Part shown: positions 48,603-54,735 of the stretch, piece after piece
How positions within the stretch are numbered: position 1 is the first letter of the stretch
Layout: each line of letters starts with the position of its first letter
Assembly (NCBI GenBank): GCA_963703285.1
Contig: OY969807.1
Coordinates: forward strand, 1-64,000
DNA: 64,000 nt
Direction of reading: 5' to 3'
Source: an uncultured Nitrososphaerota archaeon
Lineage (GTDB): Archaea > Thermoproteota > Nitrososphaeria > Nitrososphaerales > Gagatemarchaeaceae
Translations under genes and position numbers: made by a program
The notes under the pieces: model-generated
The model's input: the letters and a program-made list of their open reading frames with translations, nothing else
Databases searched by the model: none
Told to the model about the DNA's origin: nothing

Positions 48603-49166
48603 ATGGGAGACCCTAGGAGACCACGAAGGACCTACTCGACGCCCAGGAGTCCCTGGCGGAGCGACCAGCTCGCCCAAGAGCTCTACCTTCTCGGGACCTA
48701 CGGCCTCAGGAACAAGCGCGAGCTCTGGAAGGCGTACACTCAGCTCAGCTCGATACGCAAGCAGGCGAGGCACCTGCTGGCAGCGTCCCCCGCGGTCCGG
48801 AGCCGCGACGAGGGGAAGCTCATTGACAGCCTCCTGAAGAAGGGCCTCCTCTCGACCGGGATGATCCTCGACGACGTGCTCAGCCTCAGCGTCGAGGACA
48901 TGCTTTCCAGGAGGCTGCAGTCGGTTATCTACAGGCGCGGGAGCGCGGTCTCGCCGTTGCAGGCGCGGCAGCTGATAGTCCACAGGCACGTGAAGATCGG
49001 AGAAAGAATAGTCACCGTGCCGGGCTACCATGTCACCGCGGAGGACGAGAAGAAGATCCAGCTCACGGGAGGCATCGGGACACCAAAGGTTCCCGAGCCC
49101 GCGAACGCCGCTCCTCAGGCGGGCCAGCAGGGTGCCGAACCGACGGAGCCGGCGCAGGGCCAGTGA
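48603..49166 (+). CDS. rps4: 30S ribosomal protein uS4
   Basis: MGDP, YGLRNKRELW, RRLQS, ARQLIVHRH. Confidence 0.96.
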   Translation: MGDPRRPRRTYSTPRSPWRSDQLAQELYLLGTYGLRNKRELWKAYTQLSSIRKQARHLLAASPAVRSRDEGKLIDSLLKKGLLSTGMILDDVLSLSVEDMLSRRLQSVIYRRGSAVSPLQARQLIVHRHVKIGERIVTVPGYHVTAEDEKKIQLTGGIGTPKVPEPANAAPQAGQQGAEPTEPAQGQ

Positions 49167-49172
49167 TAGCGC

Positions 49173-49208
49173 ATGTCTGAGGAAGAGTTTCTCAGAGACA
49201 AGTGGGCT
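49173..49208 (+). pseudogene. Stranded original 5' end of rps11 (MSEEEFLRDKWA)
   Basis: ATG 6 nt after the rps4 stop; aligns with [13 protein letters not shown] at 50115; frame then runs into the insert and stops at 49241. Confidence 0.8.
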
Positions 49209-49926
49209 ACTTCTGCCGCGCTCCTAGTACCCGCTCGATAACTAATCTGCCGTAGCCGAAATCTATTGCTAGTTTGACTATCGGTACCCGGTCGGTGTTG
49301 TAACGGTAGCGAATCATTGATTGCTCTTCTTCGGTCACGCAAATCCTTGTCGCGGCGTGAGCTTTTTCGAGATTTAGGGCAACCTTCAGTCTCAGCCCCT
49401 CAGACCGTGTGTATGGAATCTTCGCTGTCTTTAGTATCCCCACCTTATTTCCAATTTCTACTTCGTGGTTCACACAGCGTACTAGTTCATCCCCCGTAGT
49501 TCTGTCTTCTAGATAATCAACTATGGCTTGCAGTTCCGCTCTTTTCTTATACACGTACGGCAGCATTTCTTTCGATGCGAGGAGTACTCCGTCGAGGTTG
49601 GGAATTCTAATCTGCCATGCCGATAACCGATGTTCGAATTTCTTTTTCGTGAGACCACCTGCCCGAATGCCCTTCAGACTTAGAAAATTTCCCACTGCGA
49701 TTAGCTGCCTGTCCCAATTGTCAGTGAATCCGATCTTGACATTGATTGTGAATTGGCCAAGTTTCTCTTCCACATTTCCGTCCCCATCGAAAAAACCGGC
49801 TACGACGGGCCAGCCTTTGTATCCATCATCCAATATCCCACAGGTTCTTGAATAAAGGTCCGGCGGTATCGGAAAATTCATTGGCGCGTTTTTCCGCGGC
49901 CTCCCAGGCCTCGGTTTGCTCTCCAT
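49207..49926 (-). CDS. Free-standing single-motif LAGLIDADG homing endonuclease
   Basis: VVAGFFDGDGN motif, N-terminal RPGRPRK, C-terminal HTH-like helices, low GC. Confidence 0.85.
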   Translation of the reverse strand: MESKPRPGRPRKNAPMNFPIPPDLYSRTCGILDDGYKGWPVVAGFFDGDGNVEEKLGQFTINVKIGFTDNWDRQLIAVGNFLSLKGIRAGGLTKKKFEHRLSAWQIRIPNLDGVLLASKEMLPYVYKKRAELQAIVDYLEDRTTGDELVRCVNHEVEIGNKVGILKTAKIPYTRSEGLRLKVALNLEKAHAATRICVTEEEQSMIRYRYNTDRVPIVKLAIDFGYGRLVIERVLGARQK

Positions 49927-50153
49927 GATTGTGTAGGATGACCTTACTTATCATCACCACCCTCAGGAGTATCTCACACGACTAGGGAAAGCGATAACCA
50001 GGCAGTCTTCGGTCGCCGAAGCGGTCTTGAGTGTAGGTCATAGGCAGTTCGAGTATCGGGTGACTTGGGGAAGTTTCTTAAGGAGGTGGTAGACGGGCTC
50101 AACGATTCAAAGACTTGAGTTCTGACGAGGAGCTGTTGCGGGATCGTTGGGCT
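49209..50153. mobile_element. 945-bp homing endonuclease cassette inserted in rps11, carrying a replacement gene start
   Basis: TGGGCT at both junctions (49203-49208 and 50148-50153); exact removal restores a continuous rps11. Confidence 0.75.
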
Positions 50154-50522
50154 GTCGTGCACATCTACAGCTCCTACAACAACACCATAGTCCACATCAC
50201 CGACCTGACTGGTGCGGAGACCATCTCCTTCTCCTCGGGCGGGAGGCACGTGAAGGCCGACAGGTTCGAGGCCTCGCCCTACGCGGCGATGCGGTCGGCG
50301 TCCGCGGCGTCCGACGTCGCCAAGGGGAAGGGAATCACCGCCGTCCACATCAAGGTGAGAGCGGTTGGTGGCACGGGTCCGAGGACACCAGGTCCCGGCG
50401 CTCAGGCGGCGATCAGGGCCATCGCCCGCTCTGGCTTCAGGATAGGACGAATAGAGGACGCCACCCCCATACCTCACGACACGACCAGGAAGAAGGGTGG
50501 GCGCAGAGGAAGAAGGGCGTAA
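50115..50522 (+). CDS. rps11: 30S ribosomal protein uS11
   Basis: [35 protein letters not shown]. Confidence 0.96.
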
Positions 50523-53964: not shown

Positions 53965-54105
53965 CGGTGGCGTGCAACTCTTCGACCTCAATACGCTTAA
54001 AAGACGTTACCCGGGAAGCCGAAAGGCTCGAGACAGCAACATTGGTGAACTGGAATAAGTAACATTGCGGAACACGGCGATGACGAGGGCGGGTCTGAGG
54101 AGAAG

Positions 54106-54735
54106 ATGGTCATCCCCCAGCTCTCTGAGAAGGCCCTCCTGGCTACGGGCATCAGGATAGGGACCCAGGTCCGCACCAAGACAATGGAGCAGTTCACGAC
54201 AAGGCCGAGGCCTGACGGGCTCCACCTCATCGATTACTCCAAGACGCTCCACAGGATCGACGTCGCGGGCAGGTTCATCGCGTTCATGGGCGCTGCAAAC
54301 ACGGTGGTCTACGCGTCCAAGGACTACGGCAGGGTCCCGGTCGAGAAGTTCTGCGAGGTGACCGGGGCGATCGCGGTCACCGGTAGGTTCATGCCGGGGA
54401 CGTTCACCAACCCGCTCTACCCAGGCCACCTCGATGCCGAGCTGGTGGTCGTGGCCGACCCGGCCTCCGACACCCAGGCGATCATCGAGGCCGCGAAGAT
54501 GGGCATCCCGGTCATCGCCGTCTGCGACACAGACAACATCACCGACGACGTCGACGTCGTCATCCCTGGGAACAACAGGGGAAGGAAGGCGCTCGCGGCG
54601 ATATTCTGGCTCCTCGCCAGGTCGGTGCAGACCCACTCTGGGGCCCTAGCGGGGGACCAGCAGATGAAGTACACCATCGACGACTTCGAGACCAAGCTCC
54701 TCGAGTCCGACCTCGAGGGCGAGGAAGAAGAGTAA
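54106..54735 (+). CDS. rps2: 30S ribosomal protein uS2 (true start may lie slightly upstream)
   Basis: GIRIGT, GRFMPGTFTNP, IPGNNRG. Confidence 0.95.
   Translation: MVIPQLSEKALLATGIRIGTQVRTKTMEQFTTRPRPDGLHLIDYSKTLHRIDVAGRFIAFMGAANTVVYASKDYGRVPVEKFCEVTGAIAVTGRFMPGTFTNPLYPGHLDAELVVVADPASDTQAIIEAAKMGIPVIAVCDTDNITDDVDVVIPGNNRGRKALAAIFWLLARSVQTHSGALAGDQQMKYTIDDFETKLLESDLEGEEEE

Follow-up and report, generated by a model that had tools for sequence, protein, structure and literature searches.

In fungal mitochondria, free-standing LAGLIDADG and GIY-YIG genes have been found beside partial copies of atp6, cob, cox1 or atp9 (PMC6279837, PMC7487136), and mitochondrial 'introns with N-terminal duplication' are known from Tremella (PMC7315562). 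In these cases, an endonuclease-type element in or beside a conserved gene is accompanied by a diverged partial copy of that gene, one copy being functional and the other a fragment, and gene fragments are exchanged. In T4-like phages, free-standing homing endonuclease genes lie in other genes or split them, with mobE reported to fragment nrdA in phage Aeh1 (PMC3045599, PMC2790892). Here we describe a locus on the chromosome of an uncultured soil archaeon placed among the Nitrososphaerota by its named relatives (genome G000, a single contig of 2.25 Mb) that lies within a 64-kb stretch of DNA, hereafter called the window, and in which rps11, the gene of the ribosomal protein uS11, is split at codon 12 by an insert of 945 nt. 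This insert very probably represents a free-standing homing endonuclease cassette that supplies rps11 with a replacement start without splicing.

With the fungal mitochondrial elements, the rps11 cassette shares the combination of an endonuclease-type element, a conserved gene and a diverged partial copy of that gene as summarized above. The fungal cases are, however, organellar, concern respiratory genes and mostly involve 3′ ends or intron contexts, whereas the rps11 cassette resides on an archaeal chromosome, belongs to a family with ribosomal protein genes among its targets, replaces a 5′ end apparently together with a promoter and encodes an additional helix-turn-helix (HTH) region. Traits that it appears to share with the Seg and Mob elements of T4-like phages are homing without an intron, an insertion site between or inside conserved genes and a host function that is kept without splicing. 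The phage enzymes are of the GIY-YIG or HNH type and are encoded in phage genomes, and both nrdA pieces of Aeh1 reportedly make protein and assemble. Unlike Aeh1 nrdA, a short gene end is merely replaced in the rps11 cassette. An archaeal chromosomal endonuclease gene outside an intron or intein has a published counterpart in the free-standing LAGLIDADG_2 genes of Haloferax glycosylation islands, for which the available part of the source describes neither a split host gene nor a donated gene end (PMC5867893), unlike the situation at rps11. A preliminary description of the window, made from its sequence, had noted the lack of a described archaeal chromosomal example, and full-text searches of the literature likewise yielded no archaeal chromosomal gene start replaced by such a cassette, supplementary files, which may list further partial duplications, being outside the scope of these searches.

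The locus begins with the upstream operon gene rps4 (uS4; 48603–49166, plus strand), which matches the Pfam families S4 (E 2.9e-13) and Ribosomal_S4 and ends with a TGA codon at 49164–49166. Six bases further on, an ATG at 49173 opens the remnant of the native rps11 start (49173–49208, plus strand), which consists of ATG and 11 codons for SEEEFLRDKWA (MSEEEFLRDKWA) and from which the frame runs through ten unrelated codons (TSAALLVPAR) into a stop at 49239–49241. At 49209 the G+C content drops to 0.45–0.53 from a level of about 0.65, to recover after about 50150; over the whole cassette (49209–50153) it is 0.493, while rps4 has 0.65 and the body of rps11 0.645. Since the sequence TGGGCT is common to both ends (49203–49208 and 50148–50153), the limits of the cassette can be placed anywhere within a range of 6 nt. 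On the minus strand, antisense to rps11, the cassette carries an open reading frame (ORF) for an endonuclease of 239 amino acids (49207–49926), the translation of which contains a single LAGLIDADG motif, AGFFDGDG (residues 43–50; 49777–49800). The stop codon of this gene (CTA on the plus strand, 49207–49209) overlaps the GCT of the left junction, and its C-terminal region (approximately residues 186–236; 49219–49371) aligns with the HTH of homologous proteins. A divergent spacer (49927–50114), which could be aligned across four cassettes, leads from the endonuclease start to the cassette-borne replacement start of rps11, TTG and 12 codons (50115–50153, plus strand), and the latter is in frame with the uS11 body (50154–50522, plus strand; Pfam Ribosomal_S11). 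Residues 14–131 of the ORF beginning at TTG 50115 match Ribosomal_S11 with an E of 2.4e-42. As this is the sole uS11 match in G000, the gene at the split locus must function in its present form. Replacement start and remnant differ at 12 of 33 aligned nt. The spacing to rps4, the two starts, the repeats at the junctions and the antisense ORF had been set out in the preliminary description and were all borne out.

To place this arrangement among its relatives, the rps11 loci of 29 of them, 20 from the genus of the window, were compared and the junctions read by script. In eight of the 20 congeners (G009, G010, G002, G005, G014, G001, G003 and G015), a native start of TTG and 11 codons follows the rps4 stop at a distance of 3–7 nt, and removal of the cassette from the window restores the arrangement of these eight alleles; the earlier proposal that deletion of 49209–50153 yields a normal rps11 thus agrees with alleles that exist. 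The native codons of G009 and G002 encode SEEEFLRDKWA, identical to the upstream fragment of the window, which shows that the match at 49173 is not coincidental. Within a second genus (g20), all 30 loci are empty and rps11 starts 0–9 nt after rps4, so that the empty alleles sought by aligning related rps4–rps11 junctions are found in both genera. Among the other congeners, ten have a long N-terminal extension, one (G021) is occupied and one (G012) is of a special type described below. The extension is acidic, comprises 45–60 amino acids and starts about 20 nt after rps4 (L012, L013, L014, L016–L018, L021–L023 and L025). Two of the compared loci are irregular in themselves: rps4 of G009 (L005) matches in three pieces, for which frameshifts or assembly errors may be responsible, and rps11 of G022 (G022:C12:22165-22559) matches in two overlapping pieces, where a frameshift or an assembly error is possible as well.

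Compared to the native starts of G009 and G002, the remnant in the window shows 8 and 7 nucleotide differences, respectively, all of them synonymous (8/8 and 6/6 changed codons), although only 17 of the 99 possible single-base changes in the remnant are. Hence, the remnant was a working gene start until recently. From the other six native congeners it is set apart by 1–4 nonsynonymous codons, no more than these six naturally vary among themselves.

A query with the window endonuclease alone did not reveal related loci in genome or metagenome contigs, but a query with an alignment of its family succeeded and returned 42 metagenome loci and six genome loci, five of which have rps11 beside the endonuclease. 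Since the match statistics of L105 and L107 equal those of G225 and G021, these apparently are the same records. In sum, six distinct occupied rps11 alleles are at hand, of which three contain a remnant and two do not, while one contig ends before the junction. The full layout is present in G225 (L034), which belongs to another genus: ATG-SEEDALKDRWGI follows rps4 (remnant MSEEDALKDRWGI), then an antisense, frameshifted endonuclease gene whose stop codon lies directly at the junction, and then TTG-SADEDSLRDRWGI-VHIY. In the metagenome contig L063, the remnant reads TTG-SEEDFLKDKWA and the endonuclease matches in one piece without a stop. Two alleles have no remnant: in L064, five bases separate the rps4 stop from that of the endonuclease, whose match is equally continuous and free of internal stops, and in G021 (L015), a relative of the endonuclease with a frameshift lies between rps4 and rps11. 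The contig L065 breaks off within the endonuclease gene, the part that it covers being uninterrupted. Finally, G012 possesses no endonuclease at all, only a 109-nt spacer that keeps the conserved box discussed below and a cassette-type start; in the host tree it adjoins L064, and we interpret it as a former cassette from which the endonuclease has disappeared, the host probably retaining the foreign start. In all five alleles measured, the G+C content of the cassette (0.47–0.51) is lower than that of its flanks (0.57–0.65). The rps11 site is thus polymorphic for occupied, empty, decayed and endonuclease-less alleles, also between very close hosts. Occupied alleles are spread over three host subclades with close empty relatives in each; the occupied G021 and the empty G003, for instance, are nearly identical in rps4 and rps11 and have end branches of about 0.01. 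Together with the empty alleles and the absence of an intron signal reported below, the layout shared by five further alleles upholds the claim of a splicing-independent cassette that supplies a new gene start.

In all seven cassette-type alleles, i.e. the six occupied ones and G012, rps11 starts with TTG and 12 codons and is thereby one codon longer than the eight native congener starts located directly after rps4. The same seven alleles carry a conserved box (consensus AGAAGATTTCTTAAGGAGG) 30–32 nt upstream of the TTG, which in the window is GTTTCTTAAGGAG (50073–50085, plus strand) and presumably acts as a promoter of the TATA type with a transcription factor B recognition element (BRE) for the rebuilt rps11. 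At the level of sequence, this comparison shows that the replacement start belongs to the cassette. In the whole window there is one occurrence of the box pattern, compared to 0.04 expected. Upstream of 933 crude gene starts in the genome, TATA-like words are most frequent at −35 to −31, and a Shine-Dalgarno signal was not detected. The position of the box would fit a promoter with a short leader, and the box is likely to be the promoter and TTG 50115 the start that is used. A small plus-strand frame that ends at the TTG was rejected as a gene and judged to be a reading of the conserved box, and a scan of the region for promoters and terminators of the bacterial type is uninformative for an archaeon. 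Across the measured alleles, the two copies of the start differ at 9–12 of 33 nt. This divergence would slow deletion of the cassette by recombination and may also protect the occupied allele against being cleaved again.

The endonuclease belongs to a family for which 31 sequences were aligned. Of these, 16 match the Pfam family LAGLIDADG_3 (best E 6.7e-9) and three match LAGLIDADG_1, and homologues possess C-terminal HTH domains such as HTH_7 (four members, best E 8.2e-6), HTH_11, HTH_23 and others. At least 90% of the aligned sequences share the motif residues G44, F46, D47, G48, D49 and G50, and the lysines K127 and K128 are conserved in the family alignment, too. When the family profile is compared to PDB, I-CreI variants are matched first (E 4.2e-4), the match covering the core residues 13–116. 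A homodimer model of the window endonuclease reached a score of 0.46, while the best of three controls reached 0.00, although this may only reflect likeness to the I-CreI dimers that have been solved. The model runs agreed in at least 92% of the contacts with a pLDDT (predicted local distance difference test) of at least 84, and the predicted interface involves residues 35–49, 69–77 and 123–127 with the LAGLIDADG helix packed against itself. The score mark is reached by 20 of 30 proteins solved as pairs of one chain and by 1 of 23 solved as single chains, counts that apply only roughly because the model was made with our own alignment. Since dimers of the I-CreI type have already been solved, a passing model shows likeness rather than binding. 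The window endonuclease probably is an I-CreI-like homodimer. It resembles I-CreI in its single LAGLIDADG motif, the conserved acidic residues, the profile match across the core and the predicted symmetric dimer formed via the motif helix. The gene for I-CreI resides in a group I intron, whereas the cassette family is free-standing and has a C-terminal HTH, and the copy in the window is too diverged for Pfam.

Genomes with members of the family number 46 of 401 in the order and 44 of 96 in the taxonomic family, and a single genome has up to six copies. Among 1.84 billion representative sequences, 106 clusters are related at E≤1e-30 and 437 at E≤1e-10, and no relatives were found in phage and plasmid collections. 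G000 itself harbors a paralogue with 35% identity (E 1e-25; G000:C1:1389113-1389556, corresponding to L002:1456-1998, minus strand). Encoded next to a Tsr3-like gene for ribosome biogenesis, this paralogue of 180 amino acids is devoid of the C-terminal HTH part and has probably decayed. A further relative, P0023 (882 amino acids), has its endonuclease module at residues 675–875 behind a long N-terminal part without a Pfam match, a form that may be a fusion or a read-through in gene calling. Pfam analysis of ten longer family members, including this protein, gave no indication of a host-gene fragment fused to the endonuclease.

In a tree of 36 endonuclease sequences, the clades track the insertion sites, and the four clades with known sites are supported with values of 98–100. 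These are the clades of the rps11 site (six rows, 100/100), of the enolase/uS2 site (L040 and L044, 100/98), of a JAB-domain gene site (98/99) and of the Lrp/Tsr3 site (100/100); L093 and L101 fall at two further sites, aRF1|Obg and E2|E1-beta. The uS2 start of the window (approximately 54030–54110) corresponds to the empty site of the second of these clades. The occupied state is seen in G021 (L040:1432-2204), where a native promoter-like box is followed by the remnant MSEHEEDEAGSDEKM, two codons and a stop, then by an endonuclease gene on the same strand and by a new start, MQDEEVDQGSDEKQ, which is joined to ILPQLSEKALL. In G006 (L044), the endonuclease occupies the uS2 site without a remnant. 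A third gene with a donated 5′ end is represented by a metagenome contig (L089:571-2341) that encodes, in succession, a 5′ fragment of a methylpurine-DNA glycosylase (MPG) gene, a member of the endonuclease family (LAGLIDADG_3, E 2.7e-6) and a full-length MPG gene (Pfam positions 2–181, E 5.4e-66). The fragment comprises 74 amino acids (Pfam positions 2–71 of 181, E 3.1e-25), over which the two 5′ copies are 54% identical. G021 thus has two family members about 5 kb apart in its ribosomal protein cluster (contig C7, 51097–57028; L040 and L015), one at uS2 and the other, frameshifted one at uS11.

If the rps11 locus is such a cassette, the mobile unit would extend from the stop codon of the antisense endonuclease gene over the spacer with its TATA-like box to the replacement start, and the native start of 12 codons would have been left behind rps4 as a dead frame of 22 codons. 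uS11 would then be made from the cassette start, most likely by means of the cassette's own promoter, and neither RNA nor protein splicing would be required. The enzyme would presumably cut the empty allele near the junction, and the cassette would spread by break repair.

Several observations weigh against this reading. The window endonuclease itself matches none of the Pfam families at E≤10 and, in a phmmer search, nothing relevant among the PDB sequences, and its only match in PHROGs is a weak one (0.011) to a family labelled HNH endonuclease. The LAGLIDADG assignment rests on the homologues, the match of the family profile to I-CreI and the dimer model. In the tree, the endonuclease of G225 groups with the remnant-less alleles (92/83), and yet an approximately unbiased (AU) test did not reject an endonuclease clade congruent with the hosts (p-AU 0.389). 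Because of this non-significant result, it is not the tree from which mobility is judged but the patchy distribution, the base composition and the condition of the remnant. No foreign co-conversion tract was found in the rps11 body, the first 60 nt of which are identical to the empty allele of G002 at 57 positions, identity being highest there. The CTTAAG of the box begins at −38 and thus a few bases upstream of the genome-wide peak of TATA-like words. With respect to protection from re-cleavage, the cassette copy in L063 shares its final 15 nt with the native G009 sequence, and the compared alleles reveal no consistent difference between cassette copies and native sites. Hence, a consistent signature of resistance is lacking, and cleavage resistance, if it exists, must be particular to each pair of enzyme and host. 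The preliminary description had further pointed to a dyad, GACA-N7-TGTC, in the rebuilt empty site. It is present there, with arms of just 4 nt, but of the eight native alleles in the genus G002 alone has it intact, and as it is not conserved it was rejected as a target signal. Finally, among about 70 occupied loci of the family, flank duplications were detected at rps11, uS2 and MPG only, by scans that are crude for short repeats. Homologues beside duplicated gene starts are therefore seen at uS2 and MPG in addition to rps11, and the other family members look like plain intergenic insertions. These scans used short windows and BLASTP, which could miss short or very diverged repeats; in local alignments of whole flanks, low-complexity matches out of frame, owing to the high G+C content, had obscured any signal.

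Some of these points would also suit an alternative in which the cassette is an ancient relic, passed on vertically and no longer mobile, its protein perhaps being kept in another role, e.g. as an HTH DNA-binding protein, and the empty alleles having arisen by repeated recombinational loss. Apart from the AU test, which leaves the host-congruent endonuclease tree unrejected (p 0.389), and a window protein too diverged for Pfam, the frameshifts in two of five comparable copies speak for such a history, and direct repeats of 33–36 nt offer a route to precise loss. However, a long-dead fragment would not be expected to differ from two congeners by synonymous changes only, as the G000 remnant does. 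The G+C content of the cassette, 13–16 points below that of the flanks in all five alleles, is equally at odds with long residence, as are the very close empty relatives beside occupied alleles (G021 and G003, end branches of about 0.01). Moreover, the endonuclease gene of G000 is intact and has kept its motif residues. We therefore regard the relic as an unlikely explanation.

The possibility that the 945 nt form an intron, be it of group I, group II or the archaeal bulge-helix-bulge type, with ATG 49173 as the real start, is far less probable still. Archaeal rRNA genes do hold introns with LAGLIDADG genes, and TGGGCT at both ends would permit an in-frame join. Yet no Rfam family was matched at E≤1 on either strand of 48900–50400, and the pairing of the junctions does not exceed that of shuffled sequences (−24.7 versus −24.5 ± 4.3 kcal/mol). 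An intron would also have no need of the in-frame replacement start that is conserved in seven alleles, and it is hard to reconcile with L064 and G021, which are without any upstream remnant, and with G012, which uses the cassette start without the insert. An intein is ruled out since the endonuclease gene lies on the strand opposite to rps11, and terminal inverted repeats of the transposon type were not found. An assembly artefact or chimera, for which one could adduce the metagenome-type source of the genome and the recovery of the region solely in low-depth short contigs of one study, is scarcely credible, given that the layout recurs in the separate records G225, L063, L064 and G021, that a 343-nt soil-metagenome contig (X1 record 3) bridges the right junction and that another contig, of 154 nt (X2 record 5), extends from rps4 past 49208, albeit by just 23 letters (31 required), these bridging contigs coming from one soil-metagenome study that leaves parts of the stretch without cover and perhaps from the source sample itself, so that they are not independent.

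Taking the free-standing cassette as the preferred explanation, the locus demonstrates how an essential archaeal gene present in one copy can accommodate a homing endonuclease within its coding region without splicing, namely when the latter donates a gene end. The alleles constitute a comparative series (empty, occupied with and without remnant, decayed, and with the endonuclease lost) that is open to bench work, and the family, which numbers 106 clusters at E≤1e-30, offers small single-motif meganucleases with an extra HTH that await exploration. For annotation, it is of relevance that split or mis-started uS11 and uS2 genes are easily called pseudogenes, and for phylogenomics that uS11 and uS2 are universal markers whose 5′ ends can be foreign. 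With regard to operon evolution, rps11 would gain a promoter of its own in the cassette-type alleles. In a wider sense, the LAGLIDADG-HTH lineage in this family of Nitrososphaerota might have found a third way into essential genes besides introns and inteins, a generalization to which we give even chances: it would bring along spare 5′ segments for uS11, uS2 and MPG and, at rps11, its own promoter, decay of the endonuclease as in G012 would leave the host with a foreign N-terminus and promoter, and in universal marker genes, starts would thereby have been rewritten and operons broken repeatedly.

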